The position numbers and the translations under genes were made by a program. Positions 1-62,914 of a stretch of DNA of 64,000 bases are shown here, in pieces (positions within the stretch are counted from its first letter, which is position 1; the number at the start of each line of letters is the position of its first letter). Origin of the DNA: Candidatus Levyibacteriota bacterium (GTDB lineage Bacteria > Patescibacteriota > Microgenomatia > Levybacterales > UBA12049); NCBI GenBank assembly GCA_041906785.1, contig JAYRIM010000014.1, forward strand, positions 3,215 through 67,214, given 5' to 3'. The notes beneath the pieces were generated by a model that was not told where the DNA came from, searched no databases, and worked only from the letters and a program-made list of their open reading frames with translations.

Positions 1-12
1 TATAATACCTCT

Positions 13-8119: not shown

Positions 8120-8215
8120 ACACAACCGTTTTGTAGAAAGTAGTATGTAGCATGTAGTACGTATTAATCACACATTGTATTTTTTATACTTACTACTTAA
8201 TACTTGCTACATAAT
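8120..8215. repeat. family-3 promoter-proximal repeat (AAGTAGTATGTA ... TACTTGCTAC ... TACTTAATACT)
   Basis: Shares three motifs and an inverted-repeat arrangement with 49095-49185; both lie directly upstream of + strand genes. Confidence 0.45.
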
Positions 8216-8239
8216 ACACGTTGGGAGGGGGGTGAGAAA

Positions 8240-9728: not shown

Positions 9729-9828
9729 TCTCTCATAGGTTACTTAAGTAAATTAGGTAAGTTGAAATACTTCCTTTTTCGTAACTACTTTACAAAGTAA
9801 AGTTATTGAGATACACTTTTGAAGTTAC

Positions 9829-10779
9829 ATGTTACAAGTTATGAGAGCAGCACAAATACAGAATTACGGTGGGCCTGAAAGTATTACTATTACAGATACT
9901 GTAGAAAAGCCTTCATTAAAGCCAGGACAGATTCTTGTAGAAGTTCATGCATCGGCATTAAATCCATTCGATTCAAAACTTCGTTCTGGAGTATATAAAG
10001 AGATGATACCGCTCCAGTTTCCTTTTATACTTGGTGGAGATTTTTCCGGTGTGATAAATGAAATAGGAGAAGGGGTAACAGAGTATGCTCTGGGAGATGA
10101 AGTATTCGGCACAGCACTAGGTCTAACTGGTGGATCGGGAGCATTTGCAGAGTTTGCGACAGCGAACACAAAAAATATTTCAAAAAAACCAACAAATGTA
10201 TCTCATGTTGAAGCTGCAGCGCTAGTGCTGGTTGGAGTAAGCGCAATCCAAGCTATTGAACAACATATCAACTTGCAACCTAAGCAGCGAATTCTTCTTC
10301 ATGGTGGAGCGGGAGGTATTGGATCCGTTGCTATTCAATTAGCGAAGTCGAAAGGAGCTTATGTTGCTACTACTGTAAGTTTAGACAGTAAATCATTTGT
10401 TCAGCAGTTAGGAGCAGATGAAGTGATTGATTATAAGAATCAGAAATTTGAAGAACTGCTACACGATTATGATGCCGTGTATGATACTGTAGGTGGAGAT
10501 ACAACTGATCGGTCTTTTGCAGTTTTAAAAAGAGGTGGTGTGATTGTGTCAATGCTTGGGAAACCGAATCAGGAGCGGGCGAAAGAACTCGGTATAACTG
10601 CCATTGGCCAAATGACAAACACAAATGCAGAACATCTTTCTCGACTGAAAACATTGATTGAAACAAATGTGATTAAACCCCAGATTGATAAAACATTTCC
10701 ATTTTTTCAAGTGAGAGAATCTTTTACATACTTAGAGACAGGTCATCCTCGAGGGAAGGTTGTCCTCACTGTAAGATAA
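9829..10779 (+). CDS. NADPH:quinone oxidoreductase / Zn-independent MDR alcohol dehydrogenase family
   Basis: HASALNPFDSKLRSG, GGAGGIGSVAIQLAK Rossmann motif, typical MDR length. Confidence 0.75.
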   Translation: MLQVMRAAQIQNYGGPESITITDTVEKPSLKPGQILVEVHASALNPFDSKLRSGVYKEMIPLQFPFILGGDFSGVINEIGEGVTEYALGDEVFGTALGLTGGSGAFAEFATANTKNISKKPTNVSHVEAAALVLVGVSAIQAIEQHINLQPKQRILLHGGAGGIGSVAIQLAKSKGAYVATTVSLDSKSFVQQLGADEVIDYKNQKFEELLHDYDAVYDTVGGDTTDRSFAVLKRGGVIVSMLGKPNQERAKELGITAIGQMTNTNAEHLSRLKTLIETNVIKPQIDKTFPFFQVRESFTYLETGHPRGKVVLTVR

Positions 10780-17189: not shown

Positions 17190-17549
17190 TTAAGCGACAG
17201 TGGAAATACTAAGTTGTTTTTCTATTCGGCCCAGGCGTTTCCGTTGATCCATTTGTTCTCGGTCGAGCAAATCAAGCATACTATCTTGGTCCTTTTTTAG
17301 TGATTTCAACATTTTACTGTGACCTTCAAGCGTTCTGGTATGACCTTCAAGTATTCTGGTGTGACTTTCCAATATTCTCGTATGACTTTCAAGTGTTCTT
17401 GTATGGCTTTCAAGTAACTTAGTATGGTTTCCAAGGATTTTAGTATGACTTTCAAGAATTTTTCCATGATTTTCTAGCTGTTTATGAATAGGCGCTAATT
17501 TTTCGTCAAGTAATTCTGAAATTTGTTGGAGATCATTGGTGTTTCTCAT
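17190..17549 (-). CDS. coiled-coil protein with ~7-8 tandem heptad repeats (LESHTRI)
   Basis: Protein contains ILESHTKILGNHTKLLESHTRTLESHTRILESHTRILEGHTRTLEGHSKML; the DNA has a 21-nt tandem repeat. Confidence 0.5.
   Translation of the reverse strand: MRNTNDLQQISELLDEKLAPIHKQLENHGKILESHTKILGNHTKLLESHTRTLESHTRILESHTRILEGHTRTLEGHSKMLKSLKKDQDSMLDLLDREQMDQRKRLGRIEKQLSISTVA
17305..17470. repeat. intragenic 21-nt tandem repeat (~7-8 units) encoding LESHTRI heptads
   Basis: ttcaagtattctggtgtgactttccaatattctcgtatgactttcaagtgttcttgtatggctttcaag... Confidence 0.75.
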
Positions 17550-21489: not shown

Positions 21490-21674
21490 TCAGTTAGTTT
21501 TTACTTCTTTTAAACTTATTCTGTTATAACAGAATTTATTTTAGTGGGATTTTAAGTCTCCAATTTCGAGTTTCCAGTTTCCATTTAGTAACGATTTATC
21601 AATTTATTATGAAAATAATTGGAAAATGGAAATTGGCAATTCGAAAATTTAATTACGTGCTATACTAGGCGCGT

Positions 21675-22676: not shown

Positions 22677-22702
22677 GAGTTGTCAGTTGTCGGCTGTCAG
22701 TT
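22677..22702. repeat. CAGTTnTC(A/G)G decamer-family repeat, short intergenic copy
   Basis: GAGTTGTCAGTTGTCGGCTGTCAGTT. Confidence 0.5.
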
Positions 22703-33669: not shown

Positions 33670-36015
33670 ATGGTGTTTTTTAGAGTTTTTCAGAATTTTT
33701 GTATATTTCTTTTTTGTTTATATTCTTTGTTATTTCTACCTCGATTCGCTTTTGCTGCAAGTCAGGTGGTAACGAATAATAATAATTCAGGAGCAGGGTC
33801 ACTGCGTCAAGCAATTCTTGATATAGAGTCCAGCGGCTCTGATGGAGATACTATTACATTTAATCTCTCTGCAGGAAACGAGACTATTACTATTTCTTCA
33901 CAATTTGCGCTTATTTGGCAAAAGAATTTTACAATTGATGGTGACAATACTGCAGGAAGTGGTACGAATGTGACTATTCAAGTAACTACGCCGGGCAGTT
34001 CTTCATTCAGAATCTTTGAAATACGACCATATAGCGGAACCTATTTATTTAAAAACATGACTTTGTATGGAGGAAACGTTAGTACTGAGTACGGTGGAAC
34101 TATTAAAGTTTACTCTGGTGACAGTACAGGAAACTTAACACTTGATAATGTAATAATTGATGGATCAAAAGCTATGTATGGTGGTTGTGTCTATGCATGG
34201 GGAACAATGGGAACATTAACTATCACAAACAGCACCTTTACCAATTGTCAGGCTACCAATGCATCGCCTTATGGTGGTGGAGCATTATTTATGCGGTCTG
34301 TCGGTACGATAAATATCAGTAGTTCTTCATTTACTAATAACTCAAGCATTTACCAGGGAGGAGGTATCTATATGTTCGATCAAACATTTACTATGGATAA
34401 AATAACGGTTACCGGTAATTCAGCGAGTAACCAAGGTGGAGGAATATATTTAGATGGGGATAATGCTTTAGCAATTGCTACATTAACGAATTCTACCATA
34501 GCAAATAATACCTCTTCGTCTCATGGTGGTGGGCTTCTTTTATATTACGGAAGAGTGCAGATTACGAACAGTACAATAAGTAGTAATACTTCTTCAGGTG
34601 TGGGAGGAGGATTTTATTCGGGATATGGAAGCCCCTATTTAACTAATGTCACACTTGCAAATAATAATTCTACAGGAGGAACAGCTGATGGCGTGTATCA
34701 TGAAGGTGGCTCTACGCTGTATATGAAAAACACGATTCTTGCAAATAACGGTACAGGCTATGATATGACAAATAATGCTACTGTATCAGATAGCGGATAT
34801 AATATTGTAGAAAATTCTTCCGGAAAAACATTTAATGCGACAGGAGATATAGCTGGCAACCAAGCAAATTTGAACCTTGATAGCACACTGGCTGATAATA
34901 GTACTTTAAATGGGACACAAACATTAGCTCTTGCTTCTGGCAGTGTGGCAATTGATGCTGGAAATTCTACGACATATCAGTCAATAACAATACCTTCTAC
35001 AGATCAACGCGGTTTAAGTAGATCAGGAACATTGGATATAGGTGCTTATGAATATGCAGGAGGGGGAAGTACGCCTACTCCCACGCCTACAAATACACCA
35101 ACACCTACACCGACACCTACAAATACCCCGACGCCCACACCTGCTCCCACAAGCACGCCTACTCCCACGCCCACAAATACTCAAACTCCTACTCCAACAA
35201 ATACCCCTAGTCCTACCTCAACACCTACTCCCACTGTGGTGCAAACTACAAGTACATCTACATCAGAAACTTCTTCAAAAGGAACAGAAACATGTCCTTC
35301 AAGATATGTTGAATGTCCGAATACAGGACCAATATTCCAAAGAGCTCAGTTAGTAACATCAGATGGAGTCTACGCTAGCCATGGACAGTTTTTCCTAAAT
35401 CCGCTTCCAGGCAGTATGGATTTAGTCATAAAGATAGACCAACAGAATACGGTTAACCTTCTAACTAAACAGGTTGATGTGCCAGTGCCTTGGCAGCAGG
35501 GATACAACACAGCCGGAGAAATTTTTTCTTATAATGCTAAGTCAGCGTTTAACGGCTACCCTGTGACGACTATTGATTCTCCTGCGATTATTATCTTACC
35601 ATATGACCCGAATCGTCTGTTCGGTCGCACACCAGATGAATTACGAATAGGGTATTATAACCAAACACTGAAACGATGGGAGATTATTCAGGATAATACA
35701 GTTGTGGATACAGAAAAACATACAGTAGCCAATACGACACGTATAATGACGTATTATGCTGTAGTCTATCCTCGTACGAATATCATTCCGCCTGTTCTGA
35801 AGGCAGCTTCAAAAAAAACAAAAACCCTAGGGGTGAAAACGAAATGTGGAGAATATATAGTGGAAGCTGGAGATTCGTTATGGACTATTGCGGAAGAGTT
35901 TTTAGGAAAAGGGGAAAACTACAAATCAATAAGAGAAAAAAATAAAAAGCAATTTCCTTCCTTAGAGAAATCTACCATGATAAAACCTGGTTGGAAGTTA
36001 CAGGTAGGTTGTTAA
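33670..36015 (+). CDS. secreted right-handed beta-helix (pectate-lyase-like repeat) protein with Pro/Thr linker and C-terminal LysM domain
   Basis: Signal peptide; many NxT/GGG beta-helix rungs; PTPTPTNTPTPTP linker; C-terminal LysM (CGEYIVEAGDSLWTIAEEFLGKGENYKSIREKN). Confidence 0.65.
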   Translation: MVFFRVFQNFCIFLFCLYSLLFLPRFAFAASQVVTNNNNSGAGSLRQAILDIESSGSDGDTITFNLSAGNETITISSQFALIWQKNFTIDGDNTAGSGTNVTIQVTTPGSSSFRIFEIRPYSGTYLFKNMTLYGGNVSTEYGGTIKVYSGDSTGNLTLDNVIIDGSKAMYGGCVYAWGTMGTLTITNSTFTNCQATNASPYGGGALFMRSVGTINISSSSFTNNSSIYQGGGIYMFDQTFTMDKITVTGNSASNQGGGIYLDGDNALAIATLTNSTIANNTSSSHGGGLLLYYGRVQITNSTISSNTSSGVGGGFYSGYGSPYLTNVTLANNNSTGGTADGVYHEGGSTLYMKNTILANNGTGYDMTNNATVSDSGYNIVENSSGKTFNATGDIAGNQANLNLDSTLADNSTLNGTQTLALASGSVAIDAGNSTTYQSITIPSTDQRGLSRSGTLDIGAYEYAGGGSTPTPTPTNTPTPTPTPTNTPTPTPAPTSTPTPTPTNTQTPTPTNTPSPTSTPTPTVVQTTSTSTSETSSKGTETCPSRYVECPNTGPIFQRAQLVTSDGVYASHGQFFLNPLPGSMDLVIKIDQQNTVNLLTKQVDVPVPWQQGYNTAGEIFSYNAKSAFNGYPVTTIDSPAIIILPYDPNRLFGRTPDELRIGYYNQTLKRWEIIQDNTVVDTEKHTVANTTRIMTYYAVVYPRTNIIPPVLKAASKKTKTLGVKTKCGEYIVEAGDSLWTIAEEFLGKGENYKSIREKNKKQFPSLEKSTMIKPGWKLQVGC

Positions 36016-38623: not shown

Positions 38624-38634
38624 ATAATTTTGAA

Positions 38635-38682
38635 GTTACAAGTTACAAGTTACAAGTTACAAGTTACAAGTTACAAGTTATG
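38635..38682. repeat. GTTACAA heptamer microsatellite (~6.5 units) in the fic/rpsF divergent intergenic region
   Basis: gttacaagttacaagttacaagttacaagttacaagttacaagtta. Confidence 0.8.
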
Positions 38683-40039: not shown

Positions 40040-40135
40040 TAGGAATTGAGAATTGAAAGTTGAGAATTGAGAAATTTATAAGGAATTTTTCAATAACTCT
40101 CAACTCTCCTTTCTCAACTCTCAATTCTTGCCATG
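40040..40135. repeat. long imperfect palindrome of TTGAGAAT units between rpsR and the following gene
   Basis: GAGAATTGAAAGTTGAGAATTGAGAAAT ... CTCTCAACTCTCCTTTCTCAACTCTCAATTC. Confidence 0.5.
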
Positions 40136-44905: not shown

Positions 44906-46057
44906 ATGCGTAAACTCATAGGTTTAGTTATTTTACTTCTTGGTATTCTTGCTCTTTTAAATGGAGCATCCGATTCATTTCCTCAACTTCGAAATTTTAC
45001 CCAAAAACTAGAACAGCCTCAAGTTACGAAAGAAAATGTTAAAGTTGTGACAGAAGAGTCAGTTGTTATTAATGTTGTTAAGAATTCAGGTCCTTCTGTA
45101 GTCACAATTGCGGCACAATCAGGCCAACGATCAACCTTCGAGGATGATCCCTTCTCAATTTTCGGTACACCCAGACGTTCTACAGAGCCACAAAATATCG
45201 GTTCTGGATTTGTCGTTTCTTCAGACGGCTTAATCGTTACTAATAAGCACGTAGTGAGCCAAACAGGGGTGAATTATTCTGTTATTACCACCGGAGAAAA
45301 GCGGTATAAAGTGGAAAAAATTTATCGTGACCCATTAAATGATATTGCAATAGTAAAAATTAATCCAAAAGAAAATAGCCAAGAATTAAAACCTCTTGAG
45401 CTTGGTGATTCTTCAAAACTACAAGTTGGACAATTAGTTATCGCTATAGGTACAGCATTGGGAGAATTTAATAATACAGTAACAACAGGTGTTATATCAG
45501 GGCTCGGTCGAGGAATTGTCGCAGGATCATATTTCGAAGGTTTTGCTGAAAAACTAGATGATGTTATTCAGACAGATGCAGCTATTAACCCGGGAAATAG
45601 TGGTGGTCCATTATTAAATTCAGCAGGGCAGGTGATAGGAGTAAATACAGCAGTCTCACAAAGCGGACAGAATATTGGTTTTGCGTTACCAATTAATGTC
45701 ATAAAAGATTCATTAAAGAACTTCAATGAAACAGGCCAGTTTAATCGGCCATACCTAGGGATCTCATATCAAATGGTTACCAGGGAAGCTGCTCTACAGA
45801 ACGATATTCCAGAGGGTGCGTATATACGTGGTGTTATTGAAGATTCAGCAGCATCAAAAGCTGGTTTGGAAGTAGGGGATATCGTTACAAAAGTAAATGG
45901 CCAGAAACTTCAAGCAGAGACAAATGAACTTGCGAAAGTTATCAGTCAAAAGAAGGTCGGCGATAAACTGATACTTACTGTCTGGAGAGAAAACGAAGAG
46001 GGAAAAGGAGAAACGTTTGATACAACTGTTACATTGGAAGCCGCCCCGGAGGAATAG
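44906..46057 (+). CDS. htrA: HtrA/DegP-family serine protease with PDZ
   Basis: TNKHVV (His), D, GNSGGPLLN (Ser) triad blocks, C-terminal PDZ. Confidence 0.85.
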   Translation: MRKLIGLVILLLGILALLNGASDSFPQLRNFTQKLEQPQVTKENVKVVTEESVVINVVKNSGPSVVTIAAQSGQRSTFEDDPFSIFGTPRRSTEPQNIGSGFVVSSDGLIVTNKHVVSQTGVNYSVITTGEKRYKVEKIYRDPLNDIAIVKINPKENSQELKPLELGDSSKLQVGQLVIAIGTALGEFNNTVTTGVISGLGRGIVAGSYFEGFAEKLDDVIQTDAAINPGNSGGPLLNSAGQVIGVNTAVSQSGQNIGFALPINVIKDSLKNFNETGQFNRPYLGISYQMVTREAALQNDIPEGAYIRGVIEDSAASKAGLEVGDIVTKVNGQKLQAETNELAKVISQKKVGDKLILTVWRENEEGKGETFDTTVTLEAAPEE

Positions 46058-46200
46058 TCAGTTCTCAGTTTTCAGTTGTCGGTTTTCAGATTGCAGTTTA
46101 TCGGTTATTAGTCTTTCAGTTTTTAAATATCTGACAAACTGAAAATGGATAGACTGGTAGCTGACGCTGATAACCGAAAACTGATTACGGATTCTGCCTC
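46057..46200. repeat. CAGTTnTC(A/G)G decamer-family element arranged as a long imperfect palindrome
   Basis: Direct decamer variants (CAGTTCTCAG TTTTCAGTTGTCGG TTTTCAG...) followed by the inverted set (CTGATAACCGAAAACTGA). Confidence 0.55.
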
Positions 46201-46266
46201 TTGCGTAGTCTTTTTTTCTTCTATATAATACTATAAAGTACATATACATACTGTATACTTTTAGCC

Positions 46267-47387: not shown

Positions 47388-49070
47388 CTACGTAAGATAT
47401 TGAGAGCTACTCGTATATATTTTTACTATATCTGCATCTGACAATAAACGTATCTTCTTCATGTTTTTCGTGTCCTTAAGATATCGATGGATAATTTTAT
47501 ACATATCGAGGTCAAAAGTATAATTAGTCGATAAATCCGAAGTGCGTAACCCGAAGTTCGAAAAAGAATCTAACTTTGAATTTTGTGCACTTAAAACGTT
47601 TTGATCATTCGGCATTGCTTCGAGTTTCGATAGTATAATTTCTGATGTATCTTCGTTACCTTCTTGATCGATTTTAACACTACCTATAAAGCACCATTTA
47701 TCGATGATAAAATGTTCTGTTATGCCTGTGATTTCATTTTTTTCATCGATAATAATTGGGCCAGTGAATGGCCAAGGTTTTATTTTCGTTTTACTAAATG
47801 CAGTGACGAATCTCGTATTGTAGAACAATGCTGATTCTTTACCAACGCATGCCCCTTTACATTTGTTTAGTCTGTAAGCGAAACAGGCGGTTGACGTTTT
47901 TTCTAGTCCGATTAGTTTCTCACACAATTGATATTCTTTCGAAACATCAGCCAAAAAATTCTTGGCTTGTTTTCTGGATTTAAAGAGGCCTAGTATTGTT
48001 CCTATTTCTCCTGAAGTTATTGTTTGTACAGGAAATAGTTCTATTCCATCATATCCTTTCGTGTTCGTTACTTTTCTTAAAGCGATAAGCTCATGTTTTA
48101 CCCTCAACATCCTATTATAGATAGGAAGTTTTTGCTTTATAAGGGTTGCTTCGAGAAAGAGTGCTCCAAGTTCGCCTGCAGTAACGATAGTTTCAATATG
48201 TTCAACTTGTTGCGCTATAGACATTTCTTTCGTTGATCGAATATCTCCTGAAAAATGTGATAAAACACGATCACGAATGTTTTTACTTTTACCGATATAT
48301 AAAGGAACAGGTTGTAAGTTGTCAGTTCTAGGTTGTGGGTTATCAGTAACAGAACTTTGACTGGTTATTCCATTTACATACTGATGACTGATGACTGACG
48401 ACTGACTACCATACATAATATACACCCCTGGCAATTCGGGAAGAGAATCTATGAGTGACCAAGACAATTTAGTAGGTACGGTTGGTCTTCGTAATGCTAG
48501 ATTTACAGCTTTAAGAAACTCATCTTCAGAAAAGGTTTTTTTTGCATATTGGTAAAAATGCCATAACGCTGACGCATCGTCAAAAGCACGATGTCGCTGT
48601 TCACAGTGAATCCCGCAGCGTTGAATAACAGCATCCAGATTATGATGAGATGCCGTAGGGAAGAGAGAACGAGAAAGTTTCACTGTACAGAGTTGCCTTG
48701 CCTGAAATGGTATATTTTCTCGAAGGAAGGAATGTTTTAAAAAACTATAATCAAATCGTGCATTATGCGCGACAAAAATGCATTCATTGAGAAGTGTGCG
48801 TATTTCATCAGCTACTTCTTGAAATGTAGGTTTATTTTCGAGATCGCGTTGAGTTATACCTGTCAACAGTTCGATTTCAGGAGGGAGATGAGTTTGGGGG
48901 TTAATAAGTGATTGGTATGTCTGTACAAGCTTATTTCCTTCAACTCGGAGAATTCCTATTTCGATAATCCTTCCGTAGGAAGCAGAAGTACCAGTAGTCT
49001 CAATATCGACAAAAGCAAGTCTATCAGGCAGCATGTGTTTGATTTTAACAAGCTTGATTTTGTCCTGCAA
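47388..49070 (-). CDS. DnaQ-like 3'-5' exonuclease fused to a GIY-YIG (UvrC/Cho-like) nuclease domain
   Basis: FVDIETTG exo I motif, HNARFD, later GVYIMYG...LYIGKSKNIRDRVLSHF GIY-YIG motif interrupted by ~28 extra residues. Confidence 0.7.
   Translation of the reverse strand: MQDKIKLVKIKHMLPDRLAFVDIETTGTSASYGRIIEIGILRVEGNKLVQTYQSLINPQTHLPPEIELLTGITQRDLENKPTFQEVADEIRTLLNECIFVAHNARFDYSFLKHSFLRENIPFQARQLCTVKLSRSLFPTASHHNLDAVIQRCGIHCEQRHRAFDDASALWHFYQYAKKTFSEDEFLKAVNLALRRPTVPTKLSWSLIDSLPELPGVYIMYGSQSSVISHQYVNGITSQSSVTDNPQPRTDNLQPVPLYIGKSKNIRDRVLSHFSGDIRSTKEMSIAQQVEHIETIVTAGELGALFLEATLIKQKLPIYNRMLRVKHELIALRKVTNTKGYDGIELFPVQTITSGEIGTILGLFKSRKQAKNFLADVSKEYQLCEKLIGLEKTSTACFAYRLNKCKGACVGKESALFYNTRFVTAFSKTKIKPWPFTGPIIIDEKNEITGITEHFIIDKWCFIGSVKIDQEGNEDTSEIILSKLEAMPNDQNVLSAQNSKLDSFSNFGLRTSDLSTNYTFDLDMYKIIHRYLKDTKNMKKIRLLSDADIVKIYTSSSQYLT
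48311..48410. repeat. decamer-family repeat embedded in frame in the exonuclease/GIY-YIG gene
   Basis: GTTGTCAGTTCTAGGTTGTGGGTTATCAGTAACAG ... CTGATGACTGATGACTGACGACTGAC; encodes the extra residues between the GIY and YIG motifs. Confidence 0.5.
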
Positions 49071-49094: not shown

Positions 49095-49185
49095 CAGTTA
49101 TGAATTGTATTATGTATTAAGTAGTATGTATTATGAGAGTATGCAGTTTATTACTTGCTACTTAGTACATTCTACTTAATACTAT
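49095..49185. repeat. family-3 promoter-proximal repeat, second copy
   Basis: AAGTAGTATGTA...TACATTCTACTT inverted pair plus TACTTGCTAC. Confidence 0.45.
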
Positions 49186-52680: not shown

Positions 52681-53670
52681 TCAAATAATGGACTTTAGTC
52701 CTTCAGAAAGTTTAGTTATTGTTTGATAATGCAGCCTTCCTTCAGCCACGAAAAGGCCTAAAAAAACGAGAGTAGAGCCGAGGAGATAGGTAAAGGTAAT
52801 TGTTTCATCTAATAAAGGAATGGCTATAAGCACTGCAATAATTGGATCCATATAAGAGAAAATCCCAATCTCACTAGCGTCTAAATATTTCATAGCGATA
52901 CAGGATAAGCTATACGCTAAAGCAGAAGAAAGACATGCGCCAAAAATAATACCGACAACTCCTGGAAAACCGATGTTGGTTAAAAAGCCTTTTGTCGATA
53001 TTTCAGAAAGCATAAAAGGGAGAAAAGTTATAGAACCGATAAGGAATGTCCAAAACGTGAGTACAAGAGGGTCATAATATGTAACTAATTTTTTTAAATA
53101 CACTGTGTGTACTACTCCACCAATGGTTGCCAGGAGAAAGTAAAGGTTTCCTATAAATGATGTATCTAATCCCTGTTCTATAAGGGGGCGTATAATAATG
53201 ATCGTTACACCTGCCAAGCTAAGAAACATGCCATAAATAACTTTTTTTTTCGGTTTTTCTTTTAAAAATAATATTGCAGCCAGTAAAATAAGAACTGGTC
53301 CTGACGAACCAATAATAGGAGCATTAACACTTGAAGCGTACTCTAATCCTAGAAAGAAAAAGGTGATATTTATCGTTATACCTGCAATAGCACCGAATAT
53401 GATATGCCCGAAATGTTCCTTTCTTATTGTTACATTTTTATATACAAGTGGTAGTAGTAGATAGGTAGCAAGAAAAAAACGAAGAAAAGCTAACGTAAAC
53501 GGTTCTATATCTAATAAAGACCATTTAAAGACTGGCGCAGCAGCTCCCCAAATAAAATTTGCAATTATGAGAGCTAAAATGGCGCGGCGTGTTTTCGGCA
53601 GGGTCATGGGTATTAATAATAATTGCTGTATTGCTATATTATTATATTGTTGAGAAAAACAATTTAGCAA
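52681..53670 (-). CDS. EamA/DMT-family transporter
   Basis: 10 TM, duplicated EamA halves. Confidence 0.7.
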   Translation of the reverse strand: MLNCFSQQYNNIAIQQLLLIPMTLPKTRRAILALIIANFIWGAAAPVFKWSLLDIEPFTLAFLRFFLATYLLLPLVYKNVTIRKEHFGHIIFGAIAGITINITFFFLGLEYASSVNAPIIGSSGPVLILLAAILFLKEKPKKKVIYGMFLSLAGVTIIIIRPLIEQGLDTSFIGNLYFLLATIGGVVHTVYLKKLVTYYDPLVLTFWTFLIGSITFLPFMLSEISTKGFLTNIGFPGVVGIIFGACLSSALAYSLSCIAMKYLDASEIGIFSYMDPIIAVLIAIPLLDETITFTYLLGSTLVFLGLFVAEGRLHYQTITKLSEGLKSII

Positions 53671-53699
53671 TATAACAATAAAACAATTAGTAGAAGATA

Positions 53700-58383: not shown

Positions 58384-59499
58384 CTATAACTCCTTAAAAT
58401 CCCTTGGGGTATCTGTTAACTGTTTAAGTGTATTATTTTCTATTACAAATAAGTCTTCAATTCTCACTCCTCCATAGTTTGGAATATAGATTCCCGGTTC
58501 TATAGAAAACACCATTCCTTCAGTTAGTATTTGTTTTGACACAGGTGAAAGAGTAGGGGCTTCATGAACTTGTAACCCAATACCATGACCTAGAGAATGG
58601 GGGATGGAGGGGTAGTCTTGGGAGAGAATATGATTTCTTGCGGCGGCATCTATATTTGATGCTATTATCTCCTTAGCTCCAGAGTTGTCGGTTATCAGTT
58701 GTCGGTTGTCAGCTAGATGCAAATGAATATAATCAATTGCTTTTTGTTGGGCTTCTCGAACAACATTATATATGCGTTTTTGTTCATCAGTTGCTTTGCC
58801 AAAAAATAGTGTTCTCGTCATATCTGAACAATAAGATTCAACTTTCACGCCAAAATCCAGTAACACCAGGTCGCTAGTCGCAAGTCGTTTGTCGCCTGTT
58901 TGGTGGTGGGGGATGGCGGCGTTTGATCCAAATGCCACAATTGGATCGAACGATAGTTCTGCTCCTTGTTCTAAAATAAAGATTTTCAGTTTTTTTGCTA
59001 ACTCTTTTTCAGTTATACCAGGTTTTATTTTTGTAAGAATGAAATTAAATCCCAAATCTCCAATACGACATGCTTCTGCTATTTTTTCAATTTCTTTATG
59101 TTCTTTCTGGATGCGAAGCGTGTGTAATTCTGCTGGTTTAGTATCAAGTACTATTTCTTGAATTTTCTTTAATTCATAAACAGTTATATCTTTTTCTTCT
59201 ATCCCTAATGTTTGTATATTGTTTTGTTCGCATAATTCAGTAAACACTTTCTGAAACTGATTTGTTGAAGATAGCTCGATAAGCTTTAAATGTCCTAAAG
59301 CATGTATTGCTGTTGTATATCGGCCGTCAGTGAGAACATATGCTTCTTTTGCTGTTATAACGAGATATGCTTCTCGTTCTTCAACAGAAAAGTTTGTATA
59401 TCCACTTAGATACGATATATTCGCAACAGAGGTGATAAGAAACGCATCAAGTTTCTGTTTGTCTAATAAGCGACGAACTTTTTCGATTCTATTATGCAT
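58384..59499 (-). CDS. pepP: Xaa-Pro aminopeptidase (M24B)
   Basis: Pita-bread fold metal ligands ...DFG..., HSLGHGIGLQVHE, C-terminal ...GVRIEDL. Confidence 0.85.
   Translation of the reverse strand: MHNRIEKVRRLLDKQKLDAFLITSVANISYLSGYTNFSVEEREAYLVITAKEAYVLTDGRYTTAIHALGHLKLIELSSTNQFQKVFTELCEQNNIQTLGIEEKDITVYELKKIQEIVLDTKPAELHTLRIQKEHKEIEKIAEACRIGDLGFNFILTKIKPGITEKELAKKLKIFILEQGAELSFDPIVAFGSNAAIPHHQTGDKRLATSDLVLLDFGVKVESYCSDMTRTLFFGKATDEQKRIYNVVREAQQKAIDYIHLHLADNRQLITDNSGAKEIIASNIDAAARNHILSQDYPSIPHSLGHGIGLQVHEAPTLSPVSKQILTEGMVFSIEPGIYIPNYGGVRIEDLFVIENNTLKQLTDTPRDFKEL
58679..58712. repeat. decamer-family repeat embedded in frame in pepP
   Basis: AGTTGTCGGTTATCAGTTGTCGGTTGTCAG encodes ...ADNRQLITDN... 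Confidence 0.45.
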
Positions 59500-60941: not shown

Positions 60942-61469
60942 ATGTACGTTATGGAAATCTCCTTAGTATCTCCACATAGCATCAGAATAAAAAATAGACA
61001 AGGTTCTTTACTGATAAATCCTGGTGGTAAATCTATAGTAGCAAATGGTATTATCATCATGAAAAATGCTTCATTCGACTTGAAAAGCTTGGAGGAAGGA
61101 ACAGTTGTTATCCAAGGTGCTGGAGAATACGAATTTGCTGGAATAAAAATATCAGGTTTTAGAAATGGAGAGGACATTCTGTATAGTATCCGTACAGATA
61201 GAATAGAAATCCTTTTCGGTTCAATTAAAACATTGGAAAAAGATTATGCGAAATTGAAAGAACATCATATCGTTATCGCATTTGCTGATAGTGAGGCGGA
61301 TCCCTCATTTCTTACATCAGTCGCATCAAATGTGATTATATTTGTTGGTGAGAAAGCCGAAGGAACAATCAGTAAAATTGCTAAAGATGGATATAGAAAA
61401 GAATCTAAATACTCTATAACATTTGAAAAATTACCACAGGAGATAGAAGAGATACTACTAACTTCTTGA
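60942..61469 (+). CDS. hypothetical protein (possibly degenerate MBL-fold, UPF0173-like)
   Basis: LLINPGG...VVIQGAGEYEF pattern but no HxHxDH. Confidence 0.35.
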   Translation: MYVMEISLVSPHSIRIKNRQGSLLINPGGKSIVANGIIIMKNASFDLKSLEEGTVVIQGAGEYEFAGIKISGFRNGEDILYSIRTDRIEILFGSIKTLEKDYAKLKEHHIVIAFADSEADPSFLTSVASNVIIFVGEKAEGTISKIAKDGYRKESKYSITFEKLPQEIEEILLTS

Positions 61470-61470
61470 T

Positions 61471-61600
61471 ATTCAGTTATCAGTTTTCGGTTATCAGTTA
61501 TCGGAATTTAGGTCACCAGTTATCAGGTTGCCAGTCTGATAAACAGAAAACCGTTCAACTAGTATCTGAAAACAGACAACTGAAGACTGATAACTGAACT
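61471..61600. repeat. CAGTTnTC(A/G)G decamer-family element (direct then inverted units) upstream of dnaB
   Basis: CAGTTATCAGTTTTCGGTTATCAGTTATCGG ... CTGAAAACAGACAACTGAAGACTGATAACTGAAC. Confidence 0.55.
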
Positions 61601-62914
61601 ATGGCAACTCGAACCTTACCTCATAATGAAGAAGCAGAAAAAAGCGTTTTAGGTGCAGTTCTTATAGATAAAGATGCTATGATAACCGTTTCCGAGCTTC
61701 TTGTTCCTGAATGTTTTTATAATTCCACAAATGCAATTATTTATGAATGTATGTTAGTACTCTACGAGCAGAGGAAACCAATAGATTTATTAACAATAAC
61801 AGCAGAATTAAAGAAAAAAAAAGCGAATACAATAGACAGTGAATATTTTACAAGTCTTGTTGAAGCTGTACCGACAGCAGCAAATGTAGAACACTATGCA
61901 AGTATTGTCCGAGAAGCATACACAAAACGATCATTAATACGTGCAGGAACAGAAATCGCAGATTCAGCCTATGAAGATGGAAAAGATGTTAAAGAGGTAC
62001 TCGATAAAGCTGAATCAGCAGTTTTTTCTATTTCGCAACGTTTTATAACACGTGGTTTTATTCCGATAAAAGATACACTAACAGCAAGTTTCGATAAAAT
62101 TGACGAGCTTCATAGAAAAGGTGCAGGACTTCGTGGTATTAAAACTGGATTTGGAGACCTAGACACTGTTTTATCCGGGATGCAGAAATCAAATCTTATC
62201 ATATTGGCCGCACGCCCTGGGCAGGGAAAAACTGCAATTATGTTAAACATGGCTCAATACGTTGCAGTACATGAAAAAACTCCGATAGGCGTTTTTTCCC
62301 TCGAAATGAGTAAAGAAGAATTAGTAGATAGACTTTTAGTCGGACAGGCAGATGTCGATGCTTGGAGATTGAAAACCGGAAAATTATCAGAAGATGACTT
62401 TACTAAAATTTCAGAAGCGATGGGACAGTTAGCTGATGCGCCAATTTTTATTGATGATACTCCTGGATTATCTATCATGGAAATGCGTAGTAAAGCGAGA
62501 CGTTTACAGCTTGAACATAATATTGGATTAATTGTTGTTGATTATTTACAGCTTGTTGATCCTGGGAGACATTATGAGAGTAGAGTACAAGAAGTTTCTG
62601 CGGTTTCTCAATCATTGAAAAATTTAGCTCGTGAGCTAAATGTACCAGTTCTCGCCGCATCTCAGCTTTCTCGTGCAGTAGAACATAGAGGAGAAAGAAG
62701 ACCACAATTAGCAGATCTTCGTGAGTCAGGTGCAATAGAACAAGATGCAGATGTAGTGATGTTTCTCTACAGACCTGATGTAGAGGTGACAGGACCGACA
62801 ATACCAACCAAATTACTTGTTGCGAAACATCGTAACGGCCCAACTGATGAGATCGATTTGTTATTTAGGGGAGATAGAATAAAATTCTATAGTATAGATA
62901 AAAAGAGGGAATGA
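61601..62914 (+). CDS. dnaB: replicative DNA helicase DnaB
   Basis: N-terminal domain, Walker A GARPGQGKTA, ...IVVDYLQL..., ...ASQLSRAVE..., ...EQDADVV... Confidence 0.9.
   Translation: MATRTLPHNEEAEKSVLGAVLIDKDAMITVSELLVPECFYNSTNAIIYECMLVLYEQRKPIDLLTITAELKKKKANTIDSEYFTSLVEAVPTAANVEHYASIVREAYTKRSLIRAGTEIADSAYEDGKDVKEVLDKAESAVFSISQRFITRGFIPIKDTLTASFDKIDELHRKGAGLRGIKTGFGDLDTVLSGMQKSNLIILAARPGQGKTAIMLNMAQYVAVHEKTPIGVFSLEMSKEELVDRLLVGQADVDAWRLKTGKLSEDDFTKISEAMGQLADAPIFIDDTPGLSIMEMRSKARRLQLEHNIGLIVVDYLQLVDPGRHYESRVQEVSAVSQSLKNLARELNVPVLAASQLSRAVEHRGERRPQLADLRESGAIEQDADVVMFLYRPDVEVTGPTIPTKLLVAKHRNGPTDEIDLLFRGDRIKFYSIDKKRE

Follow-up and report, generated by a model that had tools for sequence, protein, structure and literature searches.

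A probable relic of heptamer-repeat hairpins translated within the GIY-YIG motif of a Levyibacteriota Cho+Exo nuclease

Rickettsia palindromic elements (RPEs) are reportedly short palindromic repeats that lie in spacers and also, in frame, inside conserved genes. The open reading frame (ORF) of an invaded gene is preserved, the added peptide being placed in a loop of a conserved enzyme, and copies decay with age. RPE families (RPE-1..8) reportedly have Rickettsiales hosts and a full-length consensus of about 100-150 bp that their copies share. Two further kinds of repeat are relevant here: the cyanobacterial STRR heptamers, which are direct-array heptamer repeats, and the coding repeats of Borgs, which are reportedly direct and have units divisible by three. 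We describe an in-frame segment of heptamer-periodic DNA that splits the GIY-YIG motif of a Cho+Exo nuclease gene in a Candidatus Levyibacteriota bacterium of the Candidate Phyla Radiation (CPR). Source names of homologues and synteny indicate a Patescibacteria/CPR host, probably Levybacteria-like. The gene lies on the minus strand at 47388..49070 of the stretch that we analysed, 64 kb of contig JAYRIM010000014.1 (positions 3,215 to 67,214), hereafter the window.

Direct repeats of the heptamer TAACTGA have been described from Beggiatoaceae, one Chromatiaceae species, Cyanobacteria and a few Bacteroidetes (MacGregor 2015, PMC4679880). The same study recorded only one indirect repeat among the 170 TAACTGA sets of the BOGUAY genome, and located the copies within ORFs at protein ends or in hypothetical proteins, where they are readable as LITDN (forward) or LSVISYQ (reverse). 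The direct arrays stand mostly just 5' of start codons, in forward orientation. Its stop-codon rule is that each of the three frames of a perfect forward repeat is interrupted by stop codons, whereas LSVISYQ is the reading of the reverse orientation. Long simple repeats with 7-nt units are disfavoured in coding DNA, according to the summary of Mrazek (2007) given in that paper.

The host gene is a real, uninterrupted ORF that joins a DnaQ/RNase_T 3'-5' exonuclease to a GIY-YIG domain, a Cys-rich region (UvrC_M) and Cho_C, so that the exonuclease/GIY-YIG fusion proposed in a preliminary description of this DNA was correctly identified. Translation probably starts at 49034, giving a 548-aa form that is identical to database protein P0001. 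Its RNase_T domain is clear (Pfam 2.9e-33, aa 20-169). The GIY-YIG match is partial and below threshold (20.1 bits vs a cutoff of 22.6; profile positions 15-74, starting past the insert), as expected because the motif is split by the insert. Precomputed annotations place PF27096 UvrC_M and PF27115 Cho_C on P0001, with Cho_C flagged as faint for this member. Among PDB sequences, the exonuclease domain matches those of DinG, PolC and epsilon, and those to the UvrC N-terminal domain do not start before residue 241, directly past the extra segment; a Foldseek search of the full model against the PDB was dominated by the exonuclease domain and was uninformative on the GIY-YIG loop. An N-terminal DnaQ/ExoIII exonuclease, the GIY-YIG residues, the Cys-rich region and the Cho C-terminal domain, the features of Cho+Exo membership, are thus all present. 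That subfamily was described, from a few Betaproteobacteria, as an ExoIII/epsilon exonuclease, a GIY-YIG domain, a C4 region and a Cho C-terminal domain (Dunin-Horkawicz et al. 2006, PMC1564403). The architecture is the same here, and the account of the subfamily available from that source includes no hypervariable GIY/YIG insert.

The insert itself, SQSSVISHQYVNGITSQSSVTDNPQPRTDNLQPV, comprises 34 codons (48306..48407, minus strand) between GVYIMYG and PLYIGKS, where the motif turns from its GVY strand to its LYIG strand. An extra in-frame segment had been reported at this place, and the alignment bears it out with a length of 34 residues. The translation begins SQSSVISHQ and continues with TDN..TDN. 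Its 5' arm (48380..48407, minus strand) reads GTCAGTC GTCAGTC ATCAGTC ATCAGTA on the coding strand, encodes SQSSVISHQ and is the stop-free 'reverse' orientation of TAACTGA-type units; Tandem Repeats Finder (TRF) scored it at period 7 with 3.7 copies and 94% matches. The 3' arm (48311..48347, minus strand) reads ACTGATA ACCCACA ACCTAGA ACTGACA ACTTACA AC, encodes TDNPQPRTDNLQ and includes AACTGACAACTTA at 48315-48327. It is in the 'forward' orientation, degenerate (TRF period 7, 73% matches) and without an in-frame stop. No target duplication was found at the junctions of the insert.

The same units recur through the window. The repeat unit is the heptamer TCAGTYN (reverse complement NRAACTGA), of TAACTGA type. 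The family had been proposed on the strength of a decamer, CAGTTNTCRG, which proves to be two overlapping heptamers: its matches at 46059, 46066 and 46073 are spaced by 7 nt. Outside the gene it is over-represented, with 13 matches vs 1.04 expected, a count reached in 0 of 100 shuffles. None of the 13 falls within the insert, where one arm carries the variant CAGTC[AG]TCAG. When Y is allowed at position 5 (CAGTYNTCRG), the window holds 17 matches vs 1.27 expected, three of them inside the insert and in its 5' arm. The membership of the insert DNA in a dispersed family stands for the heptamer, though not for the exact decamer. Allowing at most one mismatch, AACTGANAACTGA has 14 matches vs 0.62 expected, among them 48315-48327 in the insert and 58688-58707 in pepP; most TAACTGA-type units in the window differ at one variable position, and an exact AACTGATAACTGA lies at 61473-61485. 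Two tandem-period scans each gave 11 tracts at period 7. The first gave 0-3 at the other periods from 3 to 13 and 4 at period 14, the second 0-1 at periods 5, 6, 8, 9 and 10, and shuffles gave about 0 in both. Period 7 is the dominant tandem period of this genome.

In all, five separate loci in the window carry the TCAGTYN unit. Two are intergenic hairpins on the plus strand. The one at 46058..46190, with TCAGTTN units in its left arm and units of NAACTGA type in its right, begins directly past the stop codon of an htrA-like gene; 46050-46200 folds as RNA at -56.9 kcal/mol (z -7.5), and TRF reports period 7 with 9.1 copies. At 61471..61598 TCAGTTA and TAACTGA units fill the spacer from a stop codon at 61469 to the ATG of a dnaB-like gene at 61601, and 61465-61605 folds at -46.2 kcal/mol (z -5.1); TRF calls this locus too. 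These two palindromes had been correctly described. The third one proposed, at 22678..22702 (plus strand), is instead an intergenic direct array, AGTTGTC x3.6, with a TCAGTYN-family unit, no inverted partner and no significant fold (z -0.47).

A second in-frame copy, likewise anticipated, lies in a pepP-like M24 peptidase gene (58384..59499, minus strand). This direct array (58683..58712, minus strand) reads CTGACAA CCGACAA CTGATAA CCGACAA on the coding strand and encodes DNRQLITDN; TRF scores it at period 14 with 93% matches and at period 7 with 80%. It amounts to an insertion of 13-16 residues relative to three solved prolidases (PDB chains 1wy2, 3q6d and 1wn1) and of 10-11 residues relative to four clade orthologues (loci L085, L086, L087 and L090). 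The pepP of L082 has a segment of equal length and different sequence at the same position. In alternate units CCGA replaces CTGA, which removes TGA codons.

Set beside the TAACTGA repeats of MacGregor (2015), the window elements use the same heptamer (TAACTGA/TCAGTTA and one-base variants) and are mostly intergenic, and one array ends 2 nt 5' of a start codon (61598, ATG 61601). Copies within ORFs are rare in both, with QLITDN in pepP resembling LITDN and SSVISHQ in Cho resembling LSVISYQ, and stop codons limit the forward orientation. The differences are that the main loci of the window are inverted pairs forming 130-nt hairpins rather than direct arrays, that only one abuts a start codon, that units are degenerate at one or two positions, and that the copies within ORFs fall inside conserved enzymes, in their catalytic domains. 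PMC4679880 does not list CPR/Patescibacteria as hosts; our results extend the host range of TAACTGA-type heptamers to small-genome Patescibacteria, as paired inverted arrays.

The likeness to RPEs is drawn from behaviour and description. Window elements also lie both in spacers and in frame in enzyme genes, the Cho+Exo and pepP copies, whose ORFs are open. The stem-loop feature of RPEs is matched by the intergenic copies (z -7.5 and -5.1) and by orthologous coding copies (z -2.2 to -3.5), while the coding copy of the window scores +0.37 as DNA and about -1.6 as RNA. The window element differs in being made of tandem 7-nt units (8-nt in relatives) with no family consensus beyond the units, in its CPR host, and in that the same protein site has been hit or replaced repeatedly in many lineages. 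The preliminary comparison with RPE-like invasion of coding sequence thus holds for the behaviour and fails for a mobile element of defined consensus. Features of MITEs (miniature inverted-repeat transposable elements) were not found: there is no duplication at the junctions of 46058-46190 as compared with L082, and periodic units form an inverted repeat over the element's full length, with no unique termini. Repetitive extragenic palindromic (REP) sequences and REPINs are G+C-rich palindromes of 20-40 nt with GTAG or CGTC heads, associated with a RAYT transposase; compared in length, composition and heads, the window elements, at 100-135 nt, A+T-rich and heptamer-periodic, do not match them and have no such heads. 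The element resembles RPEs in behaviour but is not an RPE, a MITE or a REP.

Among other tandem repeats, long simple sequence repeats of 7-nt units and STRRs are similar in that period 7 dominates, several units coexist and slippage is the presumed driver; descriptions of them are of direct arrays, and inverted arrays in pairs are not known among them. Borg tandem repeats are reported to be fast-evolving, to arise independently in ORFs and to add disordered segments (PMC9879509). The window differs in its 7- or 8-nt units with an inverted arm and in its location on a bacterial chromosome. Within the texts covered by a full-text literature search, neither heptamer hairpins in CPR nor a variable GIY/YIG loop in Cho had been reported; the recurrent, fast-turnover insertion site and the class of heptamer hairpins in this CPR clade appear to be new.

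The history of the insert can be read from orthologues. In 80 loci from GTDB species representatives, the GIY/YIG loop was readable in about 56, and in about 50 of these it has 4 residues (ENGM, ENGA, ENDL and so on). Such loops occur in Nitrosomonas, Methylomonas and Thiobacillus (Proteobacteria), in Bacteroidota, including metagenome-assembled genomes labelled Chitinophagales, in Ignavibacteriota and in other CPR, and because they are found across phyla the ancestral state is a 4-residue turn. The six remaining loci have short, unrelated inserts of 11-19 residues. Among the 118 closest proteins, our set of close orthologues, 44 have 4-residue loops, 4 have loops of 5-9 residues and 70 have loops of 10-82 residues.

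The insert of the window is homologous to that of P0002 (locus L082): both start with SQSSV and end with NPQ..T..LQP[IV], and the DNA can be aligned at both ends, the two differing by indels in between. Homology is also clear between the left arm of the L082 insert and that of P0006 (locus L084). As P0002 and P0006 are only 59-60% identical to the window protein, the insert predates the splits from both lineages. The claim that the insertion is lineage-specific is therefore right in that the insert is absent from unrelated taxa, but it is no recent private invasion. The L082 and L084 inserts are clearer heptamer hairpins of the same build as the window insert (z -2.2 to -3.5). At the same protein site, L086, L088 and L092 carry period-8 versions, TCAGAnnn/TCTGAnnn, and the L089 insert carries a GATTCCCGC..GCGGGAATGAC palindrome; the remaining inserts examined as DNA have no clear period. 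Self-complementarity was higher in 14 orthologue inserts than in 140 control windows of equal length taken from those genes (mean z -1.9 vs -0.06; Mann-Whitney p = 5e-7). In an alignment of five copies the mean column identity is 64%, with the similarity in periodic units and no unique non-periodic core seen. An exact 23-mer scan of metagenome contigs found no strain variants of the window allele, and a protein-based scan returned one distant locus only. Separately, we observed that the P0066 insert (L089:10682-10807) holds the palindrome GATTCCCGCTTCCGCGGGAATGAC, which yields the peptide DSRFRGNDK and represents another kind of repeat at this protein site, and that P0087 has a similar stretch, RFRNEFGMT.

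We interpret the insert as an old, translated and partly eroded copy of the lineage's heptamer-repeat hairpins, lodged in the beta1-beta2 turn of a functional Cho+Exo nuclease, and from the sequence comparisons and the structural model we give this reading a probability of roughly 0.6. The turn would have received a copy of a hairpin of the dispersed family, either inserted there or transferred by gene conversion from a hairpin locus elsewhere; in a variant of this scenario, a hairpin seeded in the turn would have grown by 7-nt slippage. Only stop-free, in-frame versions would have survived. The forward arm would be degenerate because its perfect form has stops in all frames, and the stop-free reverse arm, still 94% periodic, is probably slipping even now; the stop-codon rule of PMC4679880 would thus explain why the two arms decayed unequally and why CCGA and CTGA alternate in pepP. 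Complementarity of the stem would since have decayed, not being selected inside a coding region, and the encoded peptide would be a tolerated, disordered surface loop with no new functional module. The turn may be the most permissive spot in the gene, so that repeat or palindrome DNA would be gained, replaced (by recombination of alleles or turnover of arrays) and lost there much faster than the protein evolves. Copies may move by transposition, by gene conversion from one hairpin to another, by an exchange of alleles across the conserved flanks, or by slippage combined with fold-back.

Several results weigh against this interpretation. The insert of the window no longer folds better than shuffles (DNA z +0.37; RNA z -1.6 to -1.9), and its palindromic origin would have to be read from its relatives. 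Clear 7- or 8-nt periodicity was seen in only 6 of the 14 inserts examined as DNA. The 58 long inserts, rich in S, K, N, E, T and D, are generic polar low complexity with no global 7-residue period at the protein level, so we do not claim that all inserts derive from heptamers. The 64% five-way identity may owe much to common periodic units. A period scan of L082 and L084 (17-21 kb each) scored no TCAGTTN-type array outside the insert, so the match of an insert to its own genome's repeat family is shown only for the window; in L089 and L090, 12-mers of the inserts recurred elsewhere in their own loci only as single chance-level matches. Neither target-site duplications nor terminal inverted repeats came to light, nor did a consensus beyond the periodic units, so transposition of a defined element is not shown. 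The activity of the protein and the disorder of the loop are predictions from sequence and model.

The loop also changes faster than a single gain would allow. In tree order, 4-residue loops are interleaved with long inserts, and near-identical proteins differ at this site. P0057 and P0106 are 97% identical outside the loop and have 35 residues and ENGA, respectively. P0062 and P0092 (95.5%) have unrelated inserts of 27 and 53 residues, P0005 and P0006 (95.3%) unrelated inserts of 32 and 49 residues, and P0032 and P0053 (92%) unrelated inserts as well. The P0005 and P0006 inserts are not frameshifted versions of one another, as the L084 insert DNA, translated in all six frames, gives nothing that resembles the P0005 insert. 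P0081, 85% identical to P0057 and P0106, has the same insert as P0057. Since the loop of P0106 is the ancestral ENGA, a history of simple gain and later decay is insufficient, and allele exchange or repeated site-preferring insertion is needed. Taken together, the contrasting alleles imply allele exchange, or repeated insertion and removal, at this site. Inserts of an 'EAACE..ETG' type turn up in four separate lineages at the GIY/YIG site. Judged from these protein sequences, the loop is a recurrent and very fast-turning-over insertion site across the whole CPR clade. With near-identical alleles that have unrelated inserts or no insert at all, population data can test whether such repeats originate in a mobile element, in recombination or in slippage.

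Spacers behave in a comparable way. The 135-nt TCAGTTN hairpin in the htrA-surA spacer of the window is lacking in L082, a clean block difference without target duplication, and the same spacer in L084 has a different, period-8 hairpin. The L090 spacer orthologous to 61471-61598 is 62 nt long and has no such hairpin. We also noted that a promoter-like TTGCGT-N17-TATAAT, 3' of the htrA-surA hairpin and before the surA-like gene, is conserved between the window (46191-46266) and L082 (L082:12635-12708).

These data could also be accounted for by a purely local origin, in which 7- or 8-nt units slip in place, with fold-back or template switching, and the likeness to intergenic hairpins reflects a genome-wide mutational bias. 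This we consider somewhat unlikely, although parts of the evidence speak for it. The hairpins of the window have a common architecture and different unit sequences: besides TCAGTTN, unrelated units are found in intergenic hairpins at 8133-8217 (TGTAGTA), 21555-21650 (GTTTCCA) and 53622-53687 (an octamer; z -4.8) and in a heptamer-stem hairpin at 40043..40128 (GAATTGA/TCTCAAC, z -5.0, also called by TRF), which suggests a generating process rather than one element. A perfect (AAGTTAC)x6.9 array shows active slippage, different hairpins occupy one and the same spacer position in different genomes, and the missing target duplications and terminal repeats fit as well. Heptanucleotide repeats are moreover the commonest long simple repeats in many bacteria and are ascribed to polymerase slippage (Mrazek 2007, as relayed in PMC4679880). 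Against a local origin, independent births would have to converge on the TCAGTYN unit at five loci within 64 kb and produce its 17 matches, the spacers of the window and L082 differ by a clean block, and the 'EAACE..ETG' insert recurs in separate lineages; frame-neutral gain by slippage, besides, requires steps of 21 nt.

A more far-reaching proposal takes the turnover further. In this Levybacteria-like CPR clade the GIY/YIG turn might do more than tolerate inserts and be a favoured site of landing or exchange, at which several kinds of palindromic or short-period repeat DNA are repeatedly installed, swapped and removed, even between alleles 95-97% identical. The heptamer hairpins would then be products of a dedicated generating or mobilising mechanism common to the TAACTGA repeats of Cyanobacteria and Beggiatoaceae. 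We regard this as speculative and, on balance, unlikely.

Selection for the loop itself would be another explanation for its frequent occupancy, either as a variable disordered peptide that alters the contacts of Cho with partners or substrates or as an mRNA hairpin that acts on translation or stability. Inserts of at least 10 residues are present in 70 of the 118 close orthologues and always in frame, the window-type insert is still found in proteins that share only 59% identity, some self-complementarity is retained in inserts, and tandem repeats that create disordered protein regions under selection have been reported for Borgs (PMC9879509). However, no sequence, length or motif is conserved among the inserts, whose composition is generic, 44 of the 118 relatives do without one, including some 97% identical to insert-bearing proteins, and the copy in the window has lost its fold. 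An adaptive loop is accordingly quite improbable in our estimate.

The protein appears to be intact around the insert. All columns that are invariant in a 49-sequence alignment are kept in the window protein (G203, V204, Y205, Y208, Y246, G248, K249, S250, R256, E288 and N307), as are four invariant cysteines (C371, C384, C392 and C396); the kept residues comprise the tyrosines of GIY and of YIG and the family's conserved Arg, Glu and Asn, and Y205, Y246, K249, R256, E288 and N307 would correspond to UvrC catalytic residues. The AlphaFold2 (AF2) model has a mean predicted local distance difference test (pLDDT) score of 84, with low confidence only in inserts. The GIY-YIG insert is polar, has block-mean pLDDT 47-66 and stands as a low-confidence loop between two confident strands, 203-209 and 243-250, the outcome of a structural check that the preliminary description had suggested. 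After these strands come the expected GIY-YIG helices and the third strand, so that the beta1-beta2-alpha topology is kept, and the extra residues leave and re-enter the fold at the tip of the beta1-beta2 hairpin. In the known UvrC and I-TevI folds this tip is, by analogy, probably solvent-exposed and directed away from the active-site face.

The earlier suggestion that the insert inactivates or remodels the domain, in a gene that is decaying or exonuclease-only, draws on the split of the family's name-giving motif and on the sub-threshold Pfam score, and is highly improbable: the ORF is intact, 59% identical to its orthologue over the full length and in conserved synteny, the UvrC_M and Cho_C regions downstream are conserved, insert-bearing forms are the clade majority, and inactivation is not supported because the invariant residues are kept on both sides of the insert and the modelled strands are retained around a low-confidence loop. 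Programmed bypass or excision of the segment also appears unlikely, as more than 70 inserts are all open and in frame and the stop-prone arm is purged of stops.

The series of loops has uses of its own. A catalytic motif that accepts 5-82 extra residues at one turn provides a natural series for insert tolerance and for the engineering of GIY-YIG nucleases. In precomputed Pfam lists PF01541 (GIY-YIG) appears almost only in orthologues of about 470-490 residues, which have the short loop. Long inserts thus hide the domain from routine annotation, the split motif dropping the Pfam match below threshold, and the precomputed annotations of most insert-bearing orthologues are without PF01541.

The Cho+Exo gene has a second in-frame insert of 36 aa (47538..47645, minus strand; residues 464-499 of the 548-aa form). 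It has no counterpart in 47 of the 49 aligned orthologues and is common only to P0003. Its pLDDT is 34-54 in the AF2 model, and its DNA shows a weak period-7 signal (0.39) and inverted CGAA/TTCG arms, with a fold not significantly better than shuffles (z +0.4).

Upstream of the gene, a heptamer-stem hairpin with the unit TGTATTA/TACTTAN (49106..49180; z -5.75) occupies the divergent spacer between Cho and a kefB-like gene. Homologous hairpins of the same unit family occur in L082 and L093, and this conservation suggests a role in the divergent Cho/kefB control region. Across the window, hairpins stand past co-directional genes, between divergent genes and, once, filling the spacer up to a start codon, and no single positional role such as termination fits. 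A consensus scan for intrinsic terminators around the gene gave no excess over shuffles and none at the hairpins, some of which lie between divergent genes. Known RNA families were also rejected for the hairpins: over the entire 64 kb, both strands included, no Rfam family reached its gathering score, and thus no tRNA, rRNA or riboswitch family was detected.

Other repeats were recorded along the window. A 21-nt-unit tandem repeat of 6.7 copies, also scored as period 63, lies at 17307-17460 and overlaps an ORF on the minus strand (17190..17549). Hexamer-based coding repeats (TACACC, in super-units of 18-30 nt) at 35070-35223, within an ORF of 781 aa (33670..36015), probably encode a Thr/Pro-rich linker. 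The perfect AAGTTAC array lies at 38633-38680 and runs into an ATG, and a related motif, TTTTGAAGTTAC..AAGTTATG at 9815-9843, likewise runs into an ATG; the placement of both recalls that of the TAACTGA repeats of Beggiatoaceae just 5' of start codons.

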